Shown in pieces: positions 2,445-64,000 of a stretch of 64,000 nucleotides of DNA. The notes under the pieces were generated by a model that worked only from the letters and a program-made list of their open reading frames with translations, made no database searches and was not told where the DNA came from. The position numbers and the translations under genes were made by a program. Each line of letters begins with the position of its first letter. The first letter of the stretch is position 1. This stretch comes from Escherichia coli. Lineage in GTDB: Bacteria; Pseudomonadota; Gammaproteobacteria; Enterobacterales; Enterobacteriaceae. Where the stretch lies: assembly GCF_013315695.1 (NCBI RefSeq), contig NZ_CP054353.1; one strand, written 5' to 3'.

Positions 2445-3560
2445 ATGCATCGACAATCCTTTTTCCTTGTGCCCCTTATTTGTCTTTCTTCCGCTCTCTG
2501 GGCGGCTCCTGCAACGGTAAATGTCGAAGTACTGCAAGACAAACTCGACCATCCCTGGGCGCTGGCCTTTTTACCCGACAATCACGGTATGTTAATCACT
2601 CTGCGCGGCGGCGAGTTGCGTCACTGGCAAGCAGGAAAAGGATTATCTGCGCCGCTTTCCGGAGTGCCGGAAGTTTGGGCGCACGGGCAGGGTGGCCTGC
2701 TGGATGTGGTTTTAGCGCCTGATTTTGCTCAGTCTCGCCGCATCTGGTTAAGTTATTCCGAAGTTGGCGATGATGGCAAAGCCGGAACTGCTGTGGGTTA
2801 TGGCCGCTTAAGTGATGATCTCTCAAAGGTGACCGACTTCCGCACCGTCTTTCGCCAGATGCCAAAACTGTCTACCGGCAACCATTTTGGCGGGCGGCTG
2901 GTATTCGACGGTAAAGGTTATCTTTTTATTGCTCTGGGCGAAAACAATCAGCGCCCGACGGCGCAGGATCTGGATAAATTACAGGGCAAACTGGTGCGTC
3001 TGACCGACCAGGGCGAAATCCCGGATGATAATCCTTTTATAAAGGAATCCGGTGCACGCGCCGAGATCTGGTCTTATGGCATTCGTAATCCGCAAGGAAT
3101 GGCGATGAATCCGTGGAGTAATGCACTATGGCTGAATGAACATGGCCCGCGCGGTGGCGATGAAATTAATATCCCGCAAAAAGGCAAAAACTACGGCTGG
3201 CCGCTGGCAACCTGGGGAATCAACTATTCGGGCTTTAAAATACCGGAAGCGAAAGGGGAGATCGTCGCCGGGACCGAGCAACCTGTTTTTTACTGGAAAG
3301 ATTCGCCCGCCGTGAGCGGCATGGCCTTCTATAACAGCGATAAATTCCCCCAGTGGCAGCAAAAATTATTTATTGGCGCGCTGAAAGATAAAGATGTCAT
3401 TGTGATGAGCGTCAACGGCGACAAAGTGACAGAAGATGGCCGTATTTTAACGGACAGAGGGCAGCGAATTCGTGATGTTCGCACTGGACCCGACGGTTAT
3501 TTATACGTTCTCACCGACGAGTCCAGTGGGGAATTACTTAAAGTTAGCCCACGCAATTAG
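2445..3560 (+). CDS. yliI: Soluble aldose sugar dehydrogenase (PQQ-dependent), YliI
   Basis: 371-aa ORF with signal peptide; length and synteny match E. coli YliI. Confidence 0.9.
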
Positions 3561-4183
3561 CTAACGGGAATCATCACCACTTTGCGCACTGCGGGGCGTT
3601 CAGTGAGTTGCTGATACCAGCGTTGCAGATTTGGACGCGGTGTCCAGGTCAGGCCAACGTTAAACAAATTGTAGATGAACGGTGCGATAGCGATATCGCC
3701 CACACCAAACTCGTCGCCGGAGAACCATTTTACTTTTGCCAGTTCCGCATCGAGCAGGGCAAACAGGGCGTCGCACTCTTTACAACTGGCATCAATGGCG
3801 GCCTGATCGCGCTCTTCCGGTGGTGTTCTGACTAATCCCATCAGGATCCCGCGATGGGCATTACTGAGCGTCTGGTTTGCCCAGTCCATCCATTTTTCTG
3901 CTTCCGCACGACGTGCCGGTGAGTCGATCCACAGGCGTTTTTGCCCGTACTGTGCCGCCAGATAGCGGACAATGGCGTTTGATTCCCAAAGAATGAGATC
4001 ACTTTCGTCGTCACGCAACAACGGCACCAGCCCGTTAGGGTTCATCGCCAGAAAATCAGCATCGTGATTTATCCCAAACTCACGGCCCGCGAGAATTTGC
4101 TCATAAGGTAGTTCCAGTTCTTCGAGCGTCAGCAATACTTTTTTTACGTTGGTTGAATTATTCCGACCCCACAGCGTAATCAT
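3557..4183 (-). CDS. gstB: Glutathione S-transferase GstB
   Basis: 208-aa product starting [16 protein letters not shown]; GST fold; synteny with yliI and dacC. Confidence 0.88.
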
Positions 4184-4429
4184 ACTCACCCCTTTTCCGA
4201 CAGGCAGCCACAGGCTGAACAGGACTCCGATGGTGAAGTAAAGTTAACTTTTAAGCAACAGCTGGCAAAAAAATGACACCAGAAGCAGCGAAGCGGCAGG
4301 ATATTGCATAAACTTTAAAAACTTTACCAACTTACGGTTTCTTTAAGTTTGTGTGTGCGTTATTAATCACCGAACTTATCATACGGCGATATAACGTATT
4401 TTTTTTGAATGGATACTCGGGTGGCATTT

Positions 4430-27565: not shown

Positions 27566-28081
27566 TTAGCGATTCTCGATGGACTGACGGAGCGTACCCG
27601 CTGTGGCATGAACGCTACCGCCTAAGTAGCGCACATCGTCGATGACCCAACACTGGCCTTCCTGAATCATTAACACTTCATCCTGCCAGCCCTGGTCACC
27701 CTGTTTGAGATCCACGCGCAATGGAATGTTACGGGCATCACGATTAGGGATAGTCGATGCACTGGCAACGTGGGCGCTGTCTGGCAAGGTGGTTCGACTG
27801 GAGAACGGATCGCTGCTTAACAATTCACGATGACTGTTATCGCGGCTGGCATCGCTAAGTAGGGTTGCCAGTTTGTCACTCAAATAGGGGCGCAGGGCGG
27901 TAATGTCATTGCTGCGATGTTGAATGCGGTAGTCATAGAATTGTTGAGCCACGCTGTCAGGGCCACCCTGGACACAGGAACCGGTGCGGGGGCCGTTATC
28001 TTTATAAGCTGGCGTGACGGTGGTACAGGCACTCAGCAGCAGTGCACATGGAATAAGTAGAGATAGTGAACGGTAGCGCAT
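27566..28081 (-). CDS. ybjP: Lipoprotein YbjP
   Basis: 171-aa product with lipobox LLSAC; synteny. Confidence 0.88.
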   Translation of the reverse strand: MRYRSLSLLIPCALLLSACTTVTPAYKDNGPRTGSCVQGGPDSVAQQFYDYRIQHRSNDITALRPYLSDKLATLLSDASRDNSHRELLSSDPFSSRTTLPDSAHVASASTIPNRDARNIPLRVDLKQGDQGWQDEVLMIQEGQCWVIDDVRYLGGSVHATAGTLRQSIENR

Positions 28082-28087
28082 AATCAT

Positions 28088-30708
28088 TTCCTTATTAGCT
28101 TGCTGTCTGCGTCACACTACGACCAAACGTTATCAGATTATTTAATACATTGTTTTTAATACAATTCTGAAACAATCTGAACACCTGATTGGGTTTGAGT
28201 CCATTGCTGGCTACCCACTCAAGGTTGCTCGTAGCTGACTTACTTAAATTACCCAAACAATAGACAGTGTAAACCATTTGTGAGGTTGAGCGTGTTATAT
28301 GGCTGAAATGATCATTTAAGGTAAATATGATAGTTCTGAAATGGCGGGATAAATCCTCCTGTAGAGGTTAAGAGCATCTGCAAGAAGCCAGTTTCACATT
28401 TATAACGCGTGATAAATGAACGCGGTTATTGTCTAATCATTACAGAATTTTTCACATGCAATAAGAGATCCTGCAATTAAGATGATTGCTAAAATTACAT
28501 TGTATTTTTGAAAATGAGCGAAATTTGATAGTCCCAGCTTTGACTTTTGATAATATTATATATGCTACAGTTGTGGGTAAAGAATTTAAGCTAATGAGTT
28601 TGAGCGAAGAATAAATCAAACTGTATCAGTGTTTCGTTAATTAATATGAGTATAAATGCGTTGTGCTTTTATAATAATAAAGCACGAGGAGTTCAGTGGA
28701 ATATCTTTTCCCTTGGGTGATTTTTAATATGATAAACAATATATCTGATCAAGCATCATCATTTCCAGGCACACAACTGAATCAAAGTGATAATTTCCTC
28801 GATTCACTGAGGGAATTTTTCGCGATATTAAATTCCAGTCGTAAGGGTGAGTTGTCTACATGGGACACCATCTACTTGCATCTGATATTAGCAATAAATG
28901 CTGATAGTGATCTCATAAAAAATGATGAGTTGCTAGTGGAAAATATTCCATCAGCGAATTATCAATTTAATATATTTTTTAGTAATGCTTTCGAGATTGA
29001 TGTTAAAAAATATCTTGGCAAATCAGAAGATAACGAAGTTGAAATAAAAGTGGGTAATGAAAGAATTACCATTGGAATACGTAATGTATCGAATGGGAAA
29101 CTTGAAAGACAAAAATTTCTTTTCCCACTGGACTATGAGAATAAATTACAACATCAATTAGACAAGCATTTTACGATTGAATCGCATCCATTATTATACA
29201 GGCATACTATGGGTAGTAAGATTGCGAATGTGATTTTTGAAAAATTATACAGTCGTATTGACTTTAACAAAGAGCAATATATATCCTTTATAAAGGATGC
29301 GTTTATTCATTTTTATGATTATAGCAGGCGATATGCAATTAGTGAGAATATCGCAAAAGACGCTGTAACAAACAATATCGCATTGATGAGTACTTTTTAT
29401 GACAGTGAAAATACGTCAGGTGAGGTTTTAAATAATGATTTTACAGAAGAAGAATCATTTGAAACTGCGTTAAATATCGAGCATGCAATAGTGCTTGGAT
29501 TTGCTGATGATAATTTTGAAACAAAACCTGTTCATTATCAGGATTTATTAACACGATTTAGTGCCTTTCAAGATACCGTGTTTAATTTGTTTCCTGAAAT
29601 GCACTCTTCGCATTACAACGATATTTGTAGCGTAAGTGTGGATATGACAAAGGGAACGCAATGCATGATTCACTTGATGGTGAATGAAGAAGTTCTTATG
29701 TCGTTGCCTGTTCCAGTTGCCATGATGGTACGTGAAGATGCAACTAATTTAGTCAATCTTAAAACACTACTCAATGATGGTTGCTTTATTAAATATAGTC
29801 ATTTTAATGACGTGGCATTAATAAAGCAAAACATAAATAATCTCTATTTATCACACACTATTGTGAATGAAAGCATATTGAAAAAATGTTGTTTTGAAAA
29901 CGGCAGTTTAGGTGATGTTAAAATCACAAATAGCAATGTAATAAACAGTGTATTCAAAAATATTTCGTTTAGATCTGTTAAAATTAACAACGTAAATACT
30001 CATTCTTTAAAATTTATTAACTGCCATTTTTTCAATGTTGATATGATAAGAGTTAATTTCAGTAAATGTCTTTTTCATGACTGTAGTATGCATGGTGTCA
30101 AGATAAAACCATGGTTGCCAGTAAAATGGACAAAAGAATTAATAAATGATTATTTGTATGGCTGTTTACTATCTCTGTACTCTATCTGTGCAAGAGATAT
30201 ATATAATATGATCGCCGGTAATAACGTGAAGGTTGCTGCGGATGCTTTCCTTGAAATACTTTATTCTCTTAAAAATAAATATTGTATTAAACTATTAAGC
30301 GCTCAGGATCGGGCGTTTATATACGAATTTGCAAGAATGATCTTCGCTTATATTAATGACAAAAGCATTGAAATCTTATTACTTTCTTGTTTTGCGGCTG
30401 CTGACCAAAAAGCAATCCAGAGGTATATACCTCAGGCGCAAGATGGGGAAGACTTTAGGAATCATTTACAATATAAGTTGGCTCTTCCCACTCATTAATG
30501 TTGCCGGCACAACATAATAGGGCAGGTAAGCGGTGCTCCATAATGAAACCAATATCCGGTTACGAAACAGATAATTGTACAGGCTTATGTACCTGTTTTT
30601 GACACAATGAGATGATTTCCTAAACTGATCAAAACCTTCTTCCCAACATGGCATATCAGTCCGATAATGCTTTAGAGATCGAAGGCTTAACAAACAAGGA
30701 GAACGATC
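28088..30708. other. AT-rich inserted island between ybjP and ybjQ (absent from K-12 as recalled)
   Basis: Abrupt drop in GC content relative to flanking core genes; holds a single 600-aa ORF with no K-12 counterpart at this locus. Confidence 0.6.
28696..30498 (+). CDS. Pentapeptide-repeat protein, candidate EspX-like type III secretion effector
   Basis: 600-aa ORF from GTG at 28696 with SD gaggag 6 nt upstream. C-terminal third has tandem 5-residue repeats with a central F/L/M (SNVIN SVFKN ISFRS VKINN ... LKFIN CHFFN VDMIR VNFSK CLFHD). AT-rich codon usage. Confidence 0.6.
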   Translation: MEYLFPWVIFNMINNISDQASSFPGTQLNQSDNFLDSLREFFAILNSSRKGELSTWDTIYLHLILAINADSDLIKNDELLVENIPSANYQFNIFFSNAFEIDVKKYLGKSEDNEVEIKVGNERITIGIRNVSNGKLERQKFLFPLDYENKLQHQLDKHFTIESHPLLYRHTMGSKIANVIFEKLYSRIDFNKEQYISFIKDAFIHFYDYSRRYAISENIAKDAVTNNIALMSTFYDSENTSGEVLNNDFTEEESFETALNIEHAIVLGFADDNFETKPVHYQDLLTRFSAFQDTVFNLFPEMHSSHYNDICSVSVDMTKGTQCMIHLMVNEEVLMSLPVPVAMMVREDATNLVNLKTLLNDGCFIKYSHFNDVALIKQNINNLYLSHTIVNESILKKCCFENGSLGDVKITNSNVINSVFKNISFRSVKINNVNTHSLKFINCHFFNVDMIRVNFSKCLFHDCSMHGVKIKPWLPVKWTKELINDYLYGCLLSLYSICARDIYNMIAGNNVKVAADAFLEILYSLKNKYCIKLLSAQDRAFIYEFARMIFAYINDKSIEILLLSCFAAADQKAIQRYIPQAQDGEDFRNHLQYKLALPTH

Positions 30709-31032
30709 ATGCAATTTTCTACAAGCCCAACTCTGGAAGGCCAGACCATCGTCGAATATTGCGGTGTGGTGACCGGCGAAGCGATTTTAGGTGCCAATAT
30801 TTTCCGTGATTTCTTTGCCGGTATCCGCGATATCGTTGGCGGACGCTCCGGGGCTTATGAAAAAGAATTGCGTAAAGCGCGGGAGATCGCCTTTGAGGAG
30901 CTCGGCGATCAGGCCCGGGCGCTGGGGGCCGATGCCGTAGTCGGTATTGATATCGACTATGAAACGGTCGGGCAAAACGGCAGTATGCTGATGGTTAGCG
31001 TCAGCGGTACGGCGGTGAAAACGCGTCGATGA
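30709..31032 (+). CDS. ybjQ: YbjQ (UPF0145 family)
   Basis: 107-aa ORF starting [21 protein letters not shown]; synteny. Confidence 0.9.
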
Positions 31033-40973: not shown

Positions 40974-41312
40974 GAAAACCCAGTCCTTGCAAAGATGAAG
41001 TCGAAATGCGCGATGACACACTACTGAAAGCGGAAGGACGAGTAAAGTTGCAATTAAAAGGAAATGTTATGCAAAAGGAGCAGTAGAGTATTCGTTTTCA
41101 TTTAAAGATGTTCTTGCGCTTTAATTACAAACCGCACCGGTGTTGGTGGCGTCAAAATCGCTGAAGCGTTCCCCGAAGGCCGGGGCAGCCCACATGGATG
41201 TGGGCTGAGGGCGCGTCTTACAAGGATAATGAGATGGACGCTCCAGATTTTACGGTATCAAAGTACCAGACTGGATCGTTGCAATACGTCCTGAAAAATT
41301 AGGGGCGTCCAC

Positions 41313-42338
41313 ATGAAAGTATCAACTCTTGGTATCGACCTGGCAAAGAACGTTTTTCAGCTTCATGGTGTCGATCATGAAGGCCATACTATTTTGCGTA
41401 AAAAGCTCACCCGGGCTAAGTTTGTTCAGTTTGTGATTCAACTGGAACCTTGTCTGATTGGCATGGAAGCCTGCTCATCCAGTCATTATTTTGCGCGATT
41501 ATTCACCCGCTATGGTCATGAGGTAAAACTCATACCTCCGCAGTATGTGAAGCCTTATGTGAAAACGAACAAGACGGATGCAGCAGATGCTGAAGCAATC
41601 TGCGAAGCGGTAACCCGTCCGAATATGCGTTTTGTTCAGATAAAAACCGAAGAGCAGCAGGCCGTTTTAGCGTTACACACTGAACGGGGAATACTTATCC
41701 GTGAGCGGATTGCCTGTGCCAATAGTTTAAGAGCCACACTTGCTGAGTTTGGTATTACGATTGCGGCCGGACAAAGCCATTTAACACGTGAGCTGCCAGC
41801 CATTCTGGAGGATGGCGAAAATGGTTTATCTCCCTTTGTCAGAACCAGCATCTACAGACAGTCTAAACATATCCGGGAACTTGAAGAACAAGTTAAACAG
41901 GTAGAAGAAGCTCTGGCCTCCTGGTATAGAACGCAGGAAGCCTGCCAGAGAATGGCCAAGATCCCGGGGGTTGGCATGCTAACGGCCACTTATGTGGTAG
42001 CAGCAGTGGGTAATGCCCGACAATTCAGTACCGCAAAGCAGTTCGCTTCATGGCTGGGGCTGACACCAAAGGAACATTCCAGCGGCGGGAAACAGCAACT
42101 GGGAGGGATCAGCAAACGTGGAGATGGATATTTCCGATACCTGCTGGTTCACGGCGCACGCGCACTTACCGCCTGGGTCAACCGAAACGGCGCGGTTGAG
42201 GAGAATTCCTGGCTTCAGGGACTCCTTGAGCGGAAGCACTACAATGTAGCTGTTGTCGCCATGGCGGCAAAAACAGCGAGGATCATGTGGTCAATGTTGT
42301 CACACAATACTGAATATCAACCTCGGCAGCTCGCCTGA
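41313..42338 (+). CDS. IS110-family transposase/recombinase (RuvC-like DEDD N-domain plus C-terminal Tnp domain)
   Basis: 341-aa ORF starting MKVSTLGIDLAKNVFQLHGVD with conserved acidic residues (GIDLAKN, GMEACSS); typical IS110/IS1111 recombinase length and architecture; agggg SD upstream. Confidence 0.85.
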   Translation: MKVSTLGIDLAKNVFQLHGVDHEGHTILRKKLTRAKFVQFVIQLEPCLIGMEACSSSHYFARLFTRYGHEVKLIPPQYVKPYVKTNKTDAADAEAICEAVTRPNMRFVQIKTEEQQAVLALHTERGILIRERIACANSLRATLAEFGITIAAGQSHLTRELPAILEDGENGLSPFVRTSIYRQSKHIRELEEQVKQVEEALASWYRTQEACQRMAKIPGVGMLTATYVVAAVGNARQFSTAKQFASWLGLTPKEHSSGGKQQLGGISKRGDGYFRYLLVHGARALTAWVNRNGAVEENSWLQGLLERKHYNVAVVAMAAKTARIMWSMLSHNTEYQPRQLA

Positions 42339-42384
42339 CACAAGGTCAGTCAATCTGACGAGGTGCTGAAAAAAAGTTAACGTC

Positions 42385-56340: not shown

Positions 56341-57030
56341 TTAAATGCCGAGTGGGAAAATATCATGGCCTTGTTCCTGCCAACTGGTGAGTTGCTGCTG
56401 TTGGGCGGAGGTTCGATTTTCACCGCACCACACCAGCAATGTACGGCCTTCGAACAGTTCAGGGCGTAGTTGATTGAGCGAGTGGGCGAGGACATCAATG
56501 CGCCATCCTTGTTGACTGGCAATCCAGCCCTCCAGCCACAGACGGGTGGTATCCTGAATATTCCAGCCAACCACCAGCGCATCTTTACCCTGTTTTTTAC
56601 GTGCCGAAGCCAGACAAATGGCAATGTAGTTGATCAGTACGCCGTCGAGGATCGCCAGCAGCGCCTGGAGAGTCGGTTGTTGGCACTGAAGCCGTCGGCG
56701 CAGTGGAATGAACAGATGTGTGGTGAGTGTCTGGGCGGGGTAATCCTGACCGCGCTCTTTGATCCACGTTCGCAGGCTATGCAGATTGCCGCTTTGCAGG
56801 TAAGTCAGTAATGTTTCTTGCTGATCGCGCCAGCCGTTCTGCACATCAACATTTTCATTACTGAGCAGCATTTTTACTTTGCTGACCTGCACGCCATTGT
56901 CGATCCAGCGTTTGATCTCGCGGATCCGGTCAATATCGGCATCGTTGAACAGCCGATGACCGCCGTCTGTCCGTTGCGGTTTCAGCAATCCGTAACGCCT
57001 CTGCCACGCGCGTAACGTGACAGGGATTAA
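56341..57030 (-). pseudogene. mlrA: mlrA (yehV), MerR-family curli regulator, 5'-truncated by prophage integration
   Basis: Reading frame matches MlrA from about residue 15 (..[30 protein letters not shown]...) to the stop at 56341. Upstream of about 57030 the sequence no longer encodes the MlrA N-terminus (expected ..GEVALLCD) and an integrase gene follows. Confidence 0.8.
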
Positions 57031-57062
57031 GGGTAAACTAACTGATTTTACAAGTTTTTATT

Positions 57063-58349
57063 TTACCCCACTTTCTTATGGGGCATACATGGGACACTTT
57101 CAGATAGTCTTTTGTTAAGGAGTTCTATCTGTTCGTGATTGTTGTCTTTCATCCATGCTCCGTAAACATTGAATACCATTTGTGCGTTTGTGTGGCCCAT
57201 CTGGCTTGCGATAAAACTAGGATTAGCTCCAGCGGCAAGTGACCAGCATGCATAAGTATGCCTGGATTGGTACGATTTTCTGTGTCTCAGACCTGCGTGT
57301 TTTAAGATACTTGTCCATGACTCCCTGATGGAGTCAACCTTATAGTGCGGTCCGGAAAACTGCCGCTGTTTTATTACCTGAGGACTAAAAACAAAAGTGC
57401 ATTTATGCACAGTACTTCTCCCATATTCCCTCTGCTTTACCTCTACAGAATGTTGCTTTCCAAGCATGGTCATTTCCGCCTGACTTTTAAGAGCATCAAT
57501 AGCTGGTTGAACCAGATGAATTGTCCTTCCGGTGCCAGCATCGGTTTTTGGTGGAGTGAATTCGCCAAGTTTTGTATAATTCCTACGGATGGTTATAGTC
57601 CTTGCTTTAAGATCTATATCTTCCCATGCCAGCGATACCAGCTCCCCGTGACGAATACCCGTGTATACAGCGAGAATCCACAGGTTTTTTGTTTGTTGAT
57701 GACGGCAAGCCTCAATAAAACGAATAAATTCGTCACGGGTGAGAGGATCTGGTTTTACCTTGGACTTTTTTAAGGGAGCCAGACCGTTAAATGGGTTTCC
57801 TGAGGTATAACCATTATCTGTTGCAAATTGAAACATTCCAGCTATGGTTGTCATATAGTAGTTTACCGTGACCACTGAGCGCCCTTTTATGGAAGAAGTC
57901 TTTCCATTAGAAAGTTTTTGGTAACCGGTCAACAAATCTCTCCTTACGAAAAGTAAATCCTCTTTTGTTATGGATGAAACCAGTTTTTTTTCACCTAACA
58001 TTGGTAACATGTTTTTAATTACTGACTGGTAACGGTTAAGTGCATTCGCACAAATCTCAATTTTCTTAAGGTCCAACCATTTTTCCGAAAGTGCCTTAAC
58101 GGTTATCTCTCTTTTTCCCAGACCAAAGTGTTTCAGGTTAGGGGAATTAGGGAACTGCGCGGAGTAGTCGAAACTCCCCATTCTGATTGCAAAACAAACG
58201 GAAGTGCGAAGTTCACCAGCGATCTTCCGGTTTTTGGCTGTGTCAGGAACACCGAGGTTTTCTCTGACACGTTTGCCATTATAGTGAAACCATATACGGA
58301 GTGATCCTCCATGGTTTTCAACGCCTGTCGGGTATGATGCGTTACTCAT
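57063..58349 (-). CDS. int: Phage tyrosine integrase
   Basis: 428-aa ORF with C-terminal tyrosine-recombinase catalytic region (..RHTYACWSLAAGANPSFIASQMGHTNAQMVFNVYGAWM..); 3' end about 30 bp from the att junction. Confidence 0.9.
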   Translation of the reverse strand: MSNASYPTGVENHGGSLRIWFHYNGKRVRENLGVPDTAKNRKIAGELRTSVCFAIRMGSFDYSAQFPNSPNLKHFGLGKREITVKALSEKWLDLKKIEICANALNRYQSVIKNMLPMLGEKKLVSSITKEDLLFVRRDLLTGYQKLSNGKTSSIKGRSVVTVNYYMTTIAGMFQFATDNGYTSGNPFNGLAPLKKSKVKPDPLTRDEFIRFIEACRHQQTKNLWILAVYTGIRHGELVSLAWEDIDLKARTITIRRNYTKLGEFTPPKTDAGTGRTIHLVQPAIDALKSQAEMTMLGKQHSVEVKQREYGRSTVHKCTFVFSPQVIKQRQFSGPHYKVDSIRESWTSILKHAGLRHRKSYQSRHTYACWSLAAGANPSFIASQMGHTNAQMVFNVYGAWMKDNNHEQIELLNKRLSESVPCMPHKKVG

Positions 58350-58382
58350 TAAACCTCCCAGACGTCCAGGAGCATTAACAGG

Positions 58383-58637
58383 TTAACCGGAACTTGCATT
58401 TTTGGCACCTGGTTGTTTCTGGTTTTCGATCCATCGCATAATTTCTTCGATGTTGTACAGGCATTCACTGTAGTGCCTCGGATCACCTTCTACAGCGTAA
58501 TGGCGGTATTCTTTTCCCTGCATCCATGACTTTCTTCTTGCCCGCTCAATGGTGCCAGGCTTTAGCCCTGTTGATGCAATGAGGACTCTCTCCGTACACC
58601 ATTTGCTGGGGGTTATCTGATAGATGATTGTCTGCAT
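58383..58637 (-). CDS. xis: Excisionase-like DNA-binding protein
   Basis: 84-aa ORF immediately upstream of int on the same strand; basic winged-helix-like segment (LKPGTIERARRKSW). Confidence 0.65.
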   Translation of the reverse strand: MQTIIYQITPSKWCTERVLIASTGLKPGTIERARRKSWMQGKEYRHYAVEGDPRHYSECLYNIEEIMRWIENQKQPGAKNASSG

Positions 58638-58655
58638 GCCAACCTCATAAAATTT

Positions 58656-58790
58656 TCATCCACGGCAGTGGCACCACACGTCAAACATTCGCTTCACAAC
58701 TTCACGACAGTAGAAGCCGTCAACATCTCGCGTCAGGTCATAGCGATTGCCGTAACGCTGGTGGACCCATCGTTCAAATGCTTTATTCAT
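58656..58790 (-). CDS. Small Cys-containing protein (44 aa), hypothetical
   Basis: Manual translation MNKAFERWVHQRYGNRYDLTRDVDGFYCREVVKRMFDVWCHCRG; fits the tight gene packing between xis and the next ORF; below ORF-track cutoff. Confidence 0.3.
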   Translation of the reverse strand: MNKAFERWVHQRYGNRYDLTRDVDGFYCREVVKRMFDVWCHCRG

Positions 58791-58793
58791 TCT

Positions 58794-59072
58794 TTACTTC
58801 CTTTTTATGGCTCGTAATTTTTTCAGGTGCTTTTCCTGCTCAGTGTCCGCGAGAATTTTGCGGTACTCCTGGTGGTCAATATGTTCGAACAGGCAGTTTA
58901 ACTCACCAATGCGTACCCGCCCGGATCGTCCGTCCATCCGTCGAAAGAACACTGAGTGCTCAGTGATGCGAGTAATCACCACGGGGTATCCGGCTCTGTC
59001 CGTGTATATCTGACCGCGTTGAATCAAAGCGAACATGTGGTTATCCCCATCGACAAATCGAGAACACAACAA
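58794..59072 (-). CDS. Phage hypothetical protein
   Basis: 92-aa ORF in the co-directional early operon. Confidence 0.45.
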   Translation of the reverse strand: MLCSRFVDGDNHMFALIQRGQIYTDRAGYPVVITRITEHSVFFRRMDGRSGRVRIGELNCLFEHIDHQEYRKILADTEQEKHLKKLRAIKRK

Positions 59073-59120
59073 ACGCTGCTGCGAATACCACCCCCAGAGT
59101 TACGATTGCATCAGGCCAGC

Positions 59121-59639
59121 TCATTGATTCACCTCCTGCCTGTCGTCCGGCATTCGCTCACTACAGCTTATCCAACCATCCGGAGTTACCGGAGAGCTGG
59201 TTGACGCTTCCGGGATTTTCCGAAAATTATTGGTTGACGAATCTTTATTTTCCCGAAAGTTTCCGGACTGAAGCATGGCTTCGCGGCAATCGTTCCAGCC
59301 TGTAGCGTATGCAGCCGCTTTGCTGCTGCCTTCAACTGGCGCATCCTGCCAATACATTTCTTCCGGCACTACCGGCGCTGGAGGGGCGGCGTAAATGCCC
59401 TCTATCACTAAATGTTTGCGCTCAAAATCATCTGGCTCTCGATGATATACGTAACTCCAATCACCAAGGTTATCATTGCGCCTGCAACGGAAACCTATCG
59501 GCTCTGCTTCCAGCGATGCCAGAGCAATTCGTGCCAGTTCTTCCGCTTCTTCTGCTGGCAGTACAACGTTGCTACCCGGTCCGTATGTTTCGCGCCACTG
59601 CTTGATTGTCAGCAGTCGCTCTTTGGTAATAGTGATCAT
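59121..59639 (-). CDS. Phage hypothetical protein
   Basis: 172-aa ORF; its start overlaps the stop of the upstream gene by 4 nt. Confidence 0.5.
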   Translation of the reverse strand: MITITKERLLTIKQWRETYGPGSNVVLPAEEAEELARIALASLEAEPIGFRCRRNDNLGDWSYVYHREPDDFERKHLVIEGIYAAPPAPVVPEEMYWQDAPVEGSSKAAAYATGWNDCREAMLQSGNFRENKDSSTNNFRKIPEASTSSPVTPDGWISCSERMPDDRQEVNQ

Positions 59640-60151
59640 GCCGCGTTTCCTTCTTTCTTATTAACAATTACACCGTCATATATTTCATTAAGGTGCCCTC
59701 TCAACTCCATGCGCCTTAATGCAGATAACATGTAATCGCATTCAACCTGCTTATTCCCGGTAAATGGCTTATCGTCAGGATTACCCCAACAGCAATTACC
59801 CCTGGGCCATCCATGTACTTTCCGTACTCTTCCGTTAACAACGTGAAGTAATCCCCAGCCGGGAGGTAAATCCTCAACTGAAATAATTTCCGGCTCACTA
59901 ATAAAGAATCGCCAGTCGCCCATGCCAAGTGAGGGATTTTTACGGAAACGCTTTTTTCTATCTGCCAACAAGTCAGCACGAGAACACTTCGCCTCTATCA
60001 GGCATGATGCTGAATTTCTGAATCCCATAGCATCTGGCTGTTCTCCGGTACTGGTTACAGCAACAAAGCGGTCATGAAAGCAAACCTTGAACCCGTTGCG
60101 CTTAAGGAACTTGTACGCAATCTGACAGAGTTCGTGGTGTGTTAACGCCAT
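59636..60151 (-). CDS. Phage protein with PD-(D/E)XK nuclease-like motif
   Basis: 171-aa ORF containing ..GEQPDAMGF..(11 aa)..IEAKCS.., a PD-x(n)-E-x-K pattern; assignment is by motif only. Confidence 0.4.
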   Translation of the reverse strand: MALTHHELCQIAYKFLKRNGFKVCFHDRFVAVTSTGEQPDAMGFRNSASCLIEAKCSRADLLADRKKRFRKNPSLGMGDWRFFISEPEIISVEDLPPGWGLLHVVNGRVRKVHGWPRGNCCWGNPDDKPFTGNKQVECDYMLSALRRMELRGHLNEIYDGVIVNKKEGNAA

Positions 60152-60152
60152 A

Positions 60153-60752
60153 TCACTCTCCTTTGATGCGAATGTCAGCGACGCGTAATGCGTGTTCTAG
60201 GTCAATCAGGTAAAGCCAACTGCCATTTTCTTTAGGTATCATGACTTGTCGCTCATCTGCATTTATGGGGTGTCCATATCGAAGGTCGTAGCGAGTCGGT
60301 AATTGAACTTCCCGCGCTTCCAGTTCAGCAATACGCTTGCACCCATCAGAGATAACTCCCTCATAATACTCGCGCTGCTCGTTGAGTTTTGATTTTGTCT
60401 CCTCAAGCTCAACGCGCAGCTTCCCTACCGTTAGCGCAATATCCTCGTTCTCCTGGTCGCGGCGTTTGATGTATTGCTGGTTTCTTTCCTGTTCATCCAG
60501 CAGTGCCAGCACGGTAGCCGGGTTAGCCTCTGCTATGAATTCAGCGTTTGCATAAGCCTGAGCATCTGTTTCAACCAGGCAGTTAACGTGACATTCTGCA
60601 ATTACGCCACCGGGTTCTCCTTTCCATTTTTGACAAACAAAAACTCCTGTTAAATTGCCGTGTTGGTTAACAGATGTATGCCCTACGATGTAGCTTCCTT
60701 TAGTTGCTTTCTCTGCCTTTTCACGCAGTACCTGATAGTTAATGTTGCTCAC
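60153..60752 (-). CDS. Phage hypothetical protein with coiled-coil region
   Basis: 199-aa ORF; start overlaps the upstream stop; central charged heptad-like region (LRVELEETKSKLNEQREYYE). Confidence 0.5.
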   Translation of the reverse strand: MSNINYQVLREKAEKATKGSYIVGHTSVNQHGNLTGVFVCQKWKGEPGGVIAECHVNCLVETDAQAYANAEFIAEANPATVLALLDEQERNQQYIKRRDQENEDIALTVGKLRVELEETKSKLNEQREYYEGVISDGCKRIAELEAREVQLPTRYDLRYGHPINADERQVMIPKENGSWLYLIDLEHALRVADIRIKGE

Positions 60753-60988
60753 TGGTTGCCTCCTTTACGGATCTGCGCTGCGATGCACGAAAAAAAAGAC
60801 TTTCGCGTATGACTGTTAAGAGCTGGCGCGAACGCCGCGTTAAGAACGGCGGCATCACAGCCGTCATCGATATAGAGCGCAATTTTTTTCTCCAGGCGTG
60901 CTTTGGCTTCCTGCAACTGCATATCCCGGCACGCACGCGGGATATACTCAGCAATTTGAGCGATAGATTTTTCGTTCTGTTTAAACAT
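60749..60988 (-). CDS. Phage hypothetical protein
   Basis: 79-aa ORF chosen over the overlapping 120-aa alternative (60739..61101) because it keeps the 4-8 nt start/stop overlap chain of the operon. Confidence 0.4.
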   Translation of the reverse strand: MFKQNEKSIAQIAEYIPRACRDMQLQEAKARLEKKIALYIDDGCDAAVLNAAFAPALNSHTRKSFFSCIAAQIRKGGNQ

Positions 60989-61184
60989 GCTTCACCTCGA
61001 TAGGCTTGATGGTATCGATCAGCAGTCGGCGGCGAGTATTTTCTGCAAAGTGGCGGCGTCCGGTTTCTTTGTGGTAAAACTCGTTTTTTCCGACGACCCA
61101 CATCCGCTTTGTCTGGTGCAGTTTTTTTACCTGCGGACCGTCTCGGGTGATAACAATTCCTGTATGAGTTTTTATCACGCTCAT
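60981..61184 (-). CDS. Phage hypothetical protein
   Basis: 67-aa basic ORF within the overlap chain. Confidence 0.4.
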   Translation of the reverse strand: MSVIKTHTGIVITRDGPQVKKLHQTKRMWVVGKNEFYHKETGRRHFAENTRRRLLIDTIKPIEVKHV

Positions 61185-61543
61185 TTTTTATTCTTCGGTG
61201 CTTTCGGCATTACTGCCCAGTGAGTGATATTGACGTTTTCAAGGTCCCCGACCTGAAATGTCCACAGCCATTCTCCGGTTTCTTTTTGTCCCCAGGTGTA
61301 CCAGAGAGAACGCCAGCCAATTAGCCAGCCTTCTCCGTTAGCATCAAATAACAGAACACTTTCATTTGCTGGTGGCAGTTCAGCTGACACTGGTATTATT
61401 TTGTTTTCCAGTGCCGCACATTTAGCTTCAAGCGCGTCGAATTTACGTAACAGGTACTCAGCATTTGTTTCATTCACTTTCAGATCTCGCGGTACACATT
61501 TCCCGCGAAGAAACCCTTCCATTTCGAAAACATTCATGCGCAT
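61181..61543 (-). CDS. Phage protein, DUF551-like
   Basis: 120-aa ORF with Trp-rich C-terminal segment (GWLIGWRSLWYTWGQKETGEWLW) resembling DUF551 phage proteins as recalled. Confidence 0.45.
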   Translation of the reverse strand: MRMNVFEMEGFLRGKCVPRDLKVNETNAEYLLRKFDALEAKCAALENKIIPVSAELPPANESVLLFDANGEGWLIGWRSLWYTWGQKETGEWLWTFQVGDLENVNITHWAVMPKAPKNKK

Positions 61544-62139
61544 TTGCGTAACTCCGATAAATCGTTAAAACGTTCCATAAACATCCCGTAGGCATGACCC
61601 GGTGCCAGTGGAATCACGTTGAACATCTCTGTTGCCGGGATGCCTTCCAGTACTGGCCAGAAAGAGCCATCATCAAGCCCGAGATCGCGGCGTTCGGTTG
61701 CCAGCATGATGAGATCGGCATATTTCACAGGCGTGCGCATAACCGGGGGTAACCCGTATTTCTCACGGATTACGGCGTCTATTTTTTCTTCCATCCGTTT
61801 ATAGTCAGGAAGAAGGCGTTTCAGTGGAGCGGGAATATCCTGGCAATACGCTTCTGTTGCATCATGCATTAACGCTTCAAAAGCAAATTCCTGCGGCACC
61901 AGCTGGCTGCAAAGCACCGCATGCTGGGCGACACTGTAGAAGTGTGAAAGATGTCCTGCAAAGCGACAGATATTTGAAAGGGAAACCGCGATATCGTTAA
62001 TCACGATGTCGTCTTTATTTATCTTGTCATAATAAAAATGCTTCCCGGAAAAAGTTTTAATAAATGACATTTCGTTCTCCACTTTATATGCGCTGCACCG
62101 CTCTGAATTTTGATTGCAGCAATCCAGCCCATTTGACAT
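61534..62139 (-). CDS. HD-domain phosphohydrolase (YfbR-like 5'-deoxynucleotidase family)
   Basis: 201-aa ORF with H...HD metal-binding signature (..AGHLSHFYSVAQHAVL...LMHDATEAY..). Confidence 0.55.
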   Translation of the reverse strand: MSNGLDCCNQNSERCSAYKVENEMSFIKTFSGKHFYYDKINKDDIVINDIAVSLSNICRFAGHLSHFYSVAQHAVLCSQLVPQEFAFEALMHDATEAYCQDIPAPLKRLLPDYKRMEEKIDAVIREKYGLPPVMRTPVKYADLIMLATERRDLGLDDGSFWPVLEGIPATEMFNVIPLAPGHAYGMFMERFNDLSELRKCA

Positions 62140-62160
62140 GGGATGATTGCTGCAATTTTT

Positions 62161-63078
62161 TTAAGTTGTTGGATTTTGGCTTTTATCTTCTTTGTAAGAA
62201 AGAAGGTCACACATCAAATTAACTACCTTGCTGAATTGGAAAAGGTCAGCGCCAGTCTGATGACGCCACTGGAATGCTTTATCATCTTCATCATTAAATG
62301 TCTGAGATTGAGTATTGATGCGCGAAAAATGGAAATTTTCGGTAAGAATGAAGGTCACACCGCAACCGGATAACTCCATTTTATCAGCAGTGAAACTACT
62401 ACTAAGGCTATCGGCCAGTTCGCTTTGAATTGACTCATGCTCAGCTGAGTAGCGAATAATTTCCTTTTGATCTGCGTAGCGTGATAGCTGAATATAATTT
62501 CCGACAGTGAATCCTTCAAATGCATTGGCTGCACCATTGATGTAGTTATTCAGGCGTGTAGTCAGTCCATTCTTGATATCACTGATGTTGATTGTTTCTG
62601 TTTTCACTGAACCGACAACCTTAATCAGCATTGCGCATACCATACCGGCTATTATTTTATTGGTTGTGTTGATTACCAATAATTTCTCATCAGTGCTGTA
62701 CAATGCAAGAATCAGAGTAGACTTAACAAATGCCTGTTTGCATAGATCTACTCGTACGTTATCAATAATGGCCAGTCGTTCGGCACGCTTTAATTTATTC
62801 CCGGACATATTTTCGGTTGTTTGGATTCGAGAATTAGCTTCTTTCATGACGACATGTCGGGGAATTATTTTCTGATCATGACGGATTACCATTGCGTACC
62901 CACCAGATATCGGAGTTACCAGTTCACCAGTGACAGGATTCTCTACAAAAGAGGACCGTGAAAATTCTGTTTCCCCGATTTCAGAATAAGGGAGTTCGAG
63001 AAGATGACCTTCAATAGCCTGTATACTAGGTAATGTTGCTCGGTACACAATTGCGTTACGAAATTTTGGTAATTTCAT
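62161..63078 (-). CDS. RdgC-like recombination-associated protein
   Basis: About 305 aa from ATG at 63078 (MKLPKFRNAIVYRATLP...) with aggaaa SD; N-terminal pattern and length resemble bacterial RdgC (MLWFKNLMVYRL...). The ORF-track 5' extension to 63279 is likely untranslated. Confidence 0.5.
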   Translation of the reverse strand: MKLPKFRNAIVYRATLPSIQAIEGHLLELPYSEIGETEFSRSSFVENPVTGELVTPISGGYAMVIRHDQKIIPRHVVMKEANSRIQTTENMSGNKLKRAERLAIIDNVRVDLCKQAFVKSTLILALYSTDEKLLVINTTNKIIAGMVCAMLIKVVGSVKTETINISDIKNGLTTRLNNYINGAANAFEGFTVGNYIQLSRYADQKEIIRYSAEHESIQSELADSLSSSFTADKMELSGCGVTFILTENFHFSRINTQSQTFNDEDDKAFQWRHQTGADLFQFSKVVNLMCDLLSYKEDKSQNPTT

Positions 63079-63765
63079 TCTATTTTCCTCTGCACAATGT
63101 ATTAGTTTCTCCACAAAACAGAGAAGAACACCTGCGGTGGCAGCCGCCCGGATGGATTGGGTTATGAGCCCGTCGTCCGGTGATGCTCTTCTCTGTTTTG
63201 TAAAAAGAGCGGTACCAGCCGGAAGCAAGTGTACAAACTGGTACCGCCAAAGCAGTGGCTGTTGTGGTGGGGTTGTCACTCAGGCGTATGGTCAACCTGA
63301 CAACCCGGTGTCCTCAACGGGGAAAGAGTAACCCCGCCATACTTACCGCCGCGCCATTTCGCGGATTACCACAACGCTGAGAGCACTTAGCCAGTTACGG
63401 CACCACACTTTGTCGCGGTTCCATAAATGCCCTCATCGTTGCACCCTGGTCTCTTCCCAGGCGTCAAACCGAATCGCCACGCTGGTTAGGCGTCTTATCA
63501 GCATCCTCATTGACTTGCACATTCCGGCTATCTGGTTTGTTTGCCCGAGCAAGGAGTGGATTGTCCCCTTTAACGTCCCCAGACCGCTAACGACGCATGT
63601 GCCATACGCCGTGTTACAACCAAATTTTGTTAGTACCTTGTTTGTAGGTCTGGAGAGAAAGATAAAATGAAGTTGCGCATTATGCAAGTGTTTTATTGCG
63701 AGATAAGCAATTTGGTGGGTAATGAAAAGCCACCTTCTGGTGGCTAATTGATGTTGAGGTAGGGG

Positions 63766-64000
63766 GTTAATTGTGTCGCTTAAGGGTCTGTGACTGACTG
63801 ATTAAGACCTTTCCAAAGACCATAAACCGGTGTTCGTTTTCGCTGGTAATTCCCCATTCGCGGTAAATCTGATTATCAGAAATTACCAGCAGTTTATCAG
63901 GTATCATTTGCAGTCGTTTGACGTAAATTTTATCATCAAAACCAAATACATATATACCATCCCCATCAAACTGATTGATACTGATATCAACGAAGATGAG
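63766..64000 (-). CDS. Partial CDS (C-terminal 78 codons; start lies beyond right window edge): S24 LexA/CI-like peptidase domain, candidate phage repressor
   Basis: Manual translation ..LIFVDISINQFDGDGIYVFGFDDKIYVKRLQMIPDKLLVISDNQIYREWGITSENEHRFMVFGKVLISQSQTLKRHN*, resembling the C-terminal autocleavage domain of CI/LexA-type repressors. Confidence 0.4.

Follow-up and report, generated by a model that had tools for sequence, protein, structure and literature searches.

Between the core genes ybjP and ybjQ, the window analysed here (the whole 64,000-nucleotide stretch of contig NZ_CP054353.1, from Escherichia coli assembly GCF_013315695.1) carries an AT-rich islet with one long open reading frame (ORF) for a 600-residue pentapeptide-repeat protein. 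Comparison of its alleles shows that this is a real gene, kept as a protein over a long time and under purifying selection. Our best explanation, which we hold with about even confidence, is that it is a functional accessory gene encoding a soluble, three-part scaffold or binding protein, probably a distant paralogue of EspX1 and unlinked to the locus of enterocyte effacement (LEE).

Evidence for purifying selection

The coding sequence is intact by ORF scan and substitution analysis and occupies positions 28696..30498 of the plus strand, stop codon included, with a GC content of 0.321. A Shine-Dalgarno sequence, GAGGA, is read at 28686..28690 on the same strand, 5 nt upstream of the GTG start, so that ORF scan and sequence reading agree on the single long frame, with its GTG start and ribosome-binding site, proposed in an earlier note made from the letters alone. 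The ORF is open in five of the seven class-I alleles examined (the class to which the window belongs) and in a divergent class-II allele. Among the five intact class-I alleles the ratio of non-synonymous to synonymous divergence (dN/dS) was 0.13-0.26 at dS 0.03-0.18, a clear deficit of non-synonymous changes (binomial p ~4e-12). For the same pairs of genomes, ybjP, ybjQ and amiD gave comparable dS values, and with a synonymous divergence resembling that of its flanks the islet is an old resident of the locus rather than a recent arrival.

The comparison between classes reaches further back. Class II is found in WL297 (positions 2484-4285 of the WL297 locus sequence) and 18 other genomes, 19 in total, always at the same locus, and shares 81% nucleotide and 72.6% protein identity with class I, with no intermediates. 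The two classes align from Met12 to the stop over 589 codons with 0 indels, at dN 0.151 and dS 0.597 (dN/dS 0.25; p ~2e-18), and the ratio stays below 0.45 in every segment of the gene. That 589 codons have passed through a dS of ~0.60 without an indel, at dN/dS 0.25, indicates that the gene has long been kept as a protein. The best-conserved part is the predicted helical tail, with 83% amino acid identity between classes. For the same pair of sequences the flanking genes show a dS of only 0.08-0.30, and the divergent block spans ~28420 to 30620 of the window; class II could come from another Escherichia lineage or represent an old balanced polymorphism.

These data bear directly on whether the gene is a relic in decay that no longer serves any function. 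Frameshifts, insertion sequence (IS) insertions and deletions in several lineages would fit such decay, as would the pseudogene label that the gene bears in RefSeq. We nevertheless consider a relic very unlikely, given the frames that remain intact in both classes, the dN/dS values of 0.13-0.26 and the 589 codons free of indels at a dS of 0.6, and given that the label itself is apparently an artefact. RefSeq/PGAP annotates 28696-29934 as a pseudogene, 'incomplete; missing C-terminus', though the 599/600-codon frame is open. This feature stops at codon 413, the position of the frameshift in the Sakai counterpart (ECs_0949/ECs_0950), even where the ORF is intact, and four other carrier loci show the same truncation. 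In the complete genomes inspected, the call thus seems to be an artefact of annotation, masking a real gene, and match tables suggest that it affects most of the ~1100 carriers. Protein databases already hold the product as a 'pentapeptide repeat-containing protein', and the submitters of PCN033 labelled it 'putative type III effector protein'.

The position of the start codon allows two readings. Conservation between the two classes sets in at Met12, and only from this residue on does the frame of the class-II allele agree; because of this, the ATG at 28729..28731 (plus strand, located on the class-I/class-II alignment) could be the true start instead of the GTG at 28696. Variants of 589 residues exist in databases.

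The islet and its distribution

Across the window, GC content drops to 0.27-0.40 over ~28050-30600, compared with 0.50-0.60 on either side. Alignment to the empty sites of AR_0019 and O26:H11 11368 sets the borders at ~28096 and ~30653, defining an islet of 2558 bp (28096..30653, unstranded) with a GC content of 0.332. This is the minimum for segments of its size across the 64 kb, for which the median is 0.511 and the 5th percentile 0.445. At empty sites the ybjP-ybjQ spacer is 125 bp long, and the islet substitutes for 56 bp of it. The short-spacer arrangement is present in K-12-like, O26 and E2348/69 genomes, so that both occupied and empty sites are found when the interval is compared across E. 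coli genomes. Composition profile and empty-site alignments therefore concur on the AT-rich insert that the earlier note had placed here. From its composition we infer a horizontal origin for the islet and, at 32% GC, its silencing by H-NS. A 10-bp direct repeat, ATGATTTCCT, lies near both islet ends but is compatible with chance (E ~0.5); we rejected a simple deletion via this repeat since the sequence that follows it does not fit.

Among 5426 complete E. coli genomes we counted 1126 carriers (21%), each with one chromosomal copy, which lies between ybjP and ybjQ in every carrier locus inspected. They include O157:H7, O55:H7, O145, Shigella sonnei, S. flexneri, porcine enterotoxigenic E. coli, and strains isolated from poultry or from human blood and urine; the window itself matches E. 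coli AF3, isolated from a blood culture in the UK (NZ_OZ547117.1), at 100% identity. Phage and plasmid collections yielded no copy on a phage or a true plasmid, and three 'plasmid' matches fell in records of 0.73-4.9 Mb that we take to be mislabelled chromosomal sequence. A scan of 100,044 GTDB species representatives gave a single match, a copy with 96% identity and a 1-bp deletion in the 2972-bp contig JAIJJM010000403.1 of a 'Collinsella sp.' metagenome-assembled genome. We do not regard Collinsella as a true host: this contig is almost certainly mis-binned E. coli contamination. The best-supported reading is that the gene is specific to E. coli and Shigella.

Architecture of the protein

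The protein divides into three parts. Residues 1-357 (28696..29766, plus strand) form an orphan region by family searches, with a mixture of helix and strand predicted by a low-confidence model. Residues 358-477 (29767..30126, plus strand) constitute the pentapeptide-repeat domain, delimited by register, shuffle test and Pfam match. The C-terminal region, residues 473-600 (30112..30495, plus strand), is predicted to be helical by a low-confidence model. In the repeat domain we count 24 consecutive pentapeptides in one unbroken register, with F, L, I, V or M at the centre in 21 of 25 positions, a periodicity matched by 3 of 1000 shuffles of the protein. Pfam Pentapeptide_4 (PF13599) matches residues 366-440 (E 2.5e-5, 24.7 bits) and 439-470 (E 0.006), and is precomputed for every homologue of the protein. 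The earlier note's 'at least ten' repeats were thus an undercount, and its placing of them at the C-terminus does not hold, for a predicted helical tail of ~125 residues comes after them. This tail starts with PWLPVKWTKELINDYL, resembling MPGRWTTQLVNKHL of EspX1. Judged by their sequence pattern, the 24 pentapeptides would form ~6 coils of a quadrilateral beta-helix.

Outside the repeats the protein stands nearly alone. An exhaustive phmmer search of 1.84 billion protein representatives gave no family match for the N-terminal 357 and C-terminal 125 residues, in line with the earlier statement that the N-terminal ~350 residues hold no assignable motif; apart from weak pentapeptide matches, it recovered just the cluster to which the protein itself belongs, with fragments of that cluster. 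Sequence matches in NCBIfam, PADLOC, PHROGs, Pfam and the PDB lie nearly all within residues 360-487: HalA and Qnr in NCBIfam, both far under their cut-offs, PDB chains of SV2, Qnr and McbG, and PHROGs of unknown function. The two matches elsewhere, a PHROG at residues 150-196 (E 0.0075) and a Vimentin chain at 270-355 (E 0.25), are both marginal. No membrane segment or Sec-type N-terminus was detected in the protein (maximum 19-residue hydropathy 1.44). AlphaFold2 gave a mean predicted local distance difference test score (pLDDT) of 41.3 for the full length (16 sequences) and of 38.8 for residues 340-600 (6 sequences), with strands across residues 388-472 in the full-length model only. These low values are explained by a family with almost no sequence diversity or alignment depth.

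Two further readings have to be weighed against these data. One is a DNA mimic that protects topoisomerase, as do Qnr, MfpA or McbG. Weak matches to Qnr, McbG-like and other pentapeptide structures at residues 365-487 point in this direction, but the Qnr model NF033086 reaches just 11.6 bits against a cut-off of 240. Qnr-type proteins have ~200-220 residues and are almost all beta-helix; here the predicted helix takes up ~120 of 600 residues and is flanked by large, unrelated domains. We therefore regard a DNA mimic as extremely improbable.

The other is a cell-intrinsic conflict gene, for anti-phage defence or protection from a toxin, occupying a small hotspot of variation with core genes on either side; diversifying or balancing selection would then account for the two deeply diverged allele classes. 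Such a gene might look like this one: alone in an AT-rich islet, found in 21% of genomes, recurrently lost, and split into two discrete classes without intermediates, at a gene dS of 0.60 versus 0.08-0.30 in the flanks. The repeat region also has its weak matches to HalA, the Hailong effector, and to functionally uncharacterised phage families. Yet no PADLOC model is matched, and HalA (NF051894) scores 24.4 bits against a cut-off of 250, over 53 repeat residues only. A membrane segment is lacking, and so is a partner gene such as halB: on either side lie ybjP and ybjQ. Library scans returned no nuclease, NTPase or other effector domain, and dN/dS below 0.45 in all segments gives no sign of positive selection. 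On balance, a role in conflict seems unlikely to us.

Comparison with the EspX proteins

The name EspX is said to go back to Tobe et al. in 2006. In Sakai, EspX1-7 correspond to ECs0025, 0876, 4654/5, 5021, 5048, 5295 and 1560 (table in PMC5931665). Since ECs_0949/0950 fall outside this list, we rejected the islet gene as a named EspX locus. Taking EspX1, EspX2, EspX4 and EspX5 from Sakai for comparison, we found a common outline: like the islet gene, all four are single genes in backbone islets encoding 430-670 residues, with GC contents of 0.323 (espX1), 0.348 (espX2), 0.320 (espX4) and 0.329 (espX5) against 0.321.

At the sequence level the similarity is faint. BLASTP against EspX1 gave E 0.004, aligning residues 379-521 with 304-438 and so extending 50 residues beyond the repeats; EspX5 and EspX4 followed with E 0.012 and 0.09. 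Profile comparison with hhalign aligned residues 471-520 to 377-438 of the EspX1 family at E 0.0064 and a probability of 5.9%, with an effective number of sequences (Neff) of ~1. In shuffle tests against EspX1, the observed score was reached in 3 of 2000 shuffles for the C-terminal post-repeat segment and in 18 of 500 for the N-terminal segment, suggesting a similarity to EspX1 that is weak and above chance. The named proteins fare no better with each other: EspX1 matches EspX5 at E 0.039 and EspX2 at E 1.6. By this measure, the resemblance of the islet protein to EspX1 is as strong as that among named EspX proteins. These have almost no pairwise similarity, and 'EspX' is a loose grouping and not a homologous family.

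Some EspX proteins do belong to recognisable enzyme or effector branches, and the NCBIfam models find them as positive controls (EspX4 as SopA family, 1172 bits; EspX2 as HECT-type E3, 84 bits; EspX5 weakly as PipB2). The islet protein gave no match at E <= 1 to NF011904 (HECT-type E3) or NF007264 (SopA family), and none to NF011743/NF011744 (PipB/PipB2); no NleL or SopA chain appeared in its PDB sequence searches. Its profile matches thus place it outside the SopA/NleL and PipB branches, and its layout suggests a protein built like EspX1 and possibly a distant paralogue of it. As for the description 'EspX-like' in the earlier note, composition, size, layout and the weak EspX1 similarity sustain it; the gene is not a named locus and lacks any SopA/NleL or PipB/PipB2 match, and in that sense the description fails.

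Relationship to type III secretion

We asked how the gene distributes relative to LEE, scored by escN-escV and the only type III secretion system counted against carriers. LEE is present in 697 of the 5426 genomes (13%), and since there are 1126 carriers, LEE must be missing from no fewer than 429 of them. Conversely, the site is empty in enteropathogenic E. coli E2348/69 and in O26:H11 11368, and the Sakai copy is frameshifted. espX1, annotated by RefSeq as a 'T3SS effector', is found in 3651 genomes (67%), and the EspX1-type group is mostly found without LEE. The earlier note had held that finding the island at this locus in commensals without a type III system, and with no secretion, would speak against its proposal. 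To a large extent this is what the at least 429 LEE-negative carriers show, but espX1 fails by the same yardstick; because espX1 itself is so widespread, the distribution argues against the term 'LEE effector' and not against 'EspX-like'. The age of the locus and its distribution both argue against dependence on LEE.

The gene may instead encode a genuine type III effector, an unnamed eighth member of the EspX type, which would enter host cells through LEE in O157, O55 and O145, Mxi-Spa in Shigella, or the second E. coli type III system (ETT2) elsewhere. In the host cell, the terminal domains would be held out by the beta-helix towards their target. Composition and architecture are those of espX genes, with weak similarity to EspX1; 13 of the first 30 residues are S, T, N, Q or P and none is K or R, as in many type III substrates, although this is a heuristic and not a prediction tool; and the PCN033 submitters chose an effector label. 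There is also a precedent for secretion of a protein encoded outside LEE, the pentapeptide-repeat protein EspY3, reported to be a type III effector found at actin pedestals (PMC6313403). Set against this are the carriers without LEE, the absence from E2348/69 and O26:H11 11368, the Sakai frameshift, the SopA/NleL, PipB and PipB2 models that remain unmatched while positive controls match, and a purifying selection that acts across lineages regardless of LEE. We consider it rather doubtful that the gene is such an effector, and to the same degree doubtful that its product is exported by any of these systems (LEE, Mxi-Spa or ETT2).

A broader alternative would remove secretion from the picture altogether: the gene and its EspX1-type relatives may be Escherichia-specific intracellular beta-helix scaffolds, kept by selection in commensals and extraintestinal pathogenic E. 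coli, and not type III effectors. We put this forward tentatively, as a minority possibility. If true, 'espX' entries among virulence markers would be mislabelled, and the two allele classes, at a dS of ~0.6 versus ~0.14 in the flanks, would point to long-term balancing selection or to import from unsampled Escherichia.

Other features of the islet and window

The islet opens with a non-coding leader of 600 bp (28096..28695, unstranded, GC 0.345), delimited by alignment, sequence and composition. To its left lies ybjP, annotated as a lipoprotein gene (27566..28081, minus strand), and to the right of the islet lies ybjQ (30709..31032, plus strand). Just 14 bp separate the islet edge from the start codon of ybjP, and everything beyond position -14 is supplied by the islet; for this reason, islet DNA is predicted to serve as the ybjP promoter in carriers. 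The leader must then carry this putative promoter together with a putative promoter of the repeat-protein gene. Upstream of ybjQ only 55 bp of the original spacer are kept, and the regulation of both ybjP and ybjQ may differ between carriers and K-12-like strains. A scan for promoter-like hexamers and terminators found them no more often than in shuffles, and an Rfam scan returned sub-threshold noise only. A 60-codon ORF on the minus strand, directly upstream of ybjP and on its strand (28095..28277), came out of the ORF scan. It is open in eight of eight alleles examined, the divergent class included; its searches yielded E. coli self-matches only, with no Pfam match, and its status as a gene is unsupported.

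Further out, positions 1 to ~11600 hold the late region of a P2-like prophage (baseplate, tail fibre, sheath, tube, tape measure, gpD and ogr), which abuts ybjL. On the other side, an IS110-family transposase lies directly after lysO (~41300-42340), followed by yohP, mdtQ, yohF, yohD, yohC, pbpG, dld, bglX, osmF-yehW and mlrA, an order that differs from the K-12 map after lysO. The flanks described earlier as K-12-collinear are so locally; beyond ~11 kb downstream, collinearity is broken at the IS110 element, probably by a large IS-associated rearrangement. The end of a lambdoid prophage (~57000-64000; integrase, excisionase and yfdP/Q/R/S-like genes) is integrated beside mlrA, the site used by Shiga toxin phages in O157:H7.

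Discussion

In the explanation we favour, an accessory gene probably related to EspX1, the product would be a soluble protein made up of an orphan N-terminal region (~357 residues), a short beta-helix of ~24 pentapeptides and a conserved helical tail (~125 residues). Set between two family-specific domains, the rigid beta-helix would serve as a stiff spacer or offer an interaction surface, and the protein as a whole would bind or scaffold without being an enzyme. The 32% GC of the gene suggests that H-NS would keep it silenced, and in most carriers it would function without need of LEE.

Several observations weigh against this explanation. The gene has been repeatedly inactivated, by a 7-bp insertion causing a frameshift in Sakai-type O157 and by IS1-mediated deletions and IS2 insertions in some lineages, and it is therefore dispensable in some of them. 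The beta-helix and the helical tail derive from sequence pattern and from a low-confidence secondary structure (pLDDT 41 and 39). Homology to EspX1 is weak, as the hhalign probability of 5.9% indicates, and BLASTP gave no significant match to EspX2. Our literature search found no paper on the function of ECs0949/ECs0950, for which no partner, ligand or phenotype is known; ECs_0950 is listed as induced in one transcriptome study.

What we describe is an unnamed member of a known and poorly understood kind of gene, and its importance is modest. Still, about one fifth of E. coli genomes keep under selection an uncharacterised protein of 600 residues. Genes called 'EspX-like' do not track LEE, with the islet gene in 21%, espX1 in 67% and LEE in 13% of genomes, a mismatch to be borne in mind where espX genes are routinely taken as markers of virulence. 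Were secretion to be shown, an effector would be added to the repertoires of O157 and Shigella; were it to be excluded, the whole EspX1-type group would merit a fresh look.

Among known systems, the islet protein shares with Qnr, MfpA and McbG the type of repeat and weak hidden Markov model matches in the repeat region, but its scores lie far under the cut-offs and its architecture is wholly different. With PipB and PipB2, secreted effectors of Salmonella pathogenicity island 2, and with the secreted EspY3, it shares a pentapeptide block as the sole recognisable domain (PMC6313403). It differs from them in lacking the LFNEF motif (C-terminal in PipB2) and the WEx5F motif, and in a shorter repeat block that is followed by the 125-residue tail. 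EspX2, EspX4, NleL (EspX7) and SopA resemble it in their pentapeptide beta-helix domain (predicted in the islet protein), in being AT-rich, and in bearing an effector or effector-like label; unlike the SopA/NleL group, it matches neither HECT-type E3 nor SopA-family models.

The closest parallel is EspX1 (ECs_0025), which bears the labels 'T3SS effector-like protein EspX' and 'type III secretion system effector EspX1'. The two differ in locus, in length (600 versus 473 residues) and in prevalence (21% versus 67% of genomes), and their identity is ~21% over ~150 residues, with the low hhalign probability given above. Yet both are single genes in AT-rich backbone islets of nearly equal GC content (0.321 and 0.323), restricted to Escherichia and mostly found in LEE-negative genomes, and both encode a large N-terminal region, a short pentapeptide block and a helical tail, in which the repeats are followed by the motif P-x-[KR]-W-T-x-[EQ]-L-[IV]-N-x-[YH]-L.

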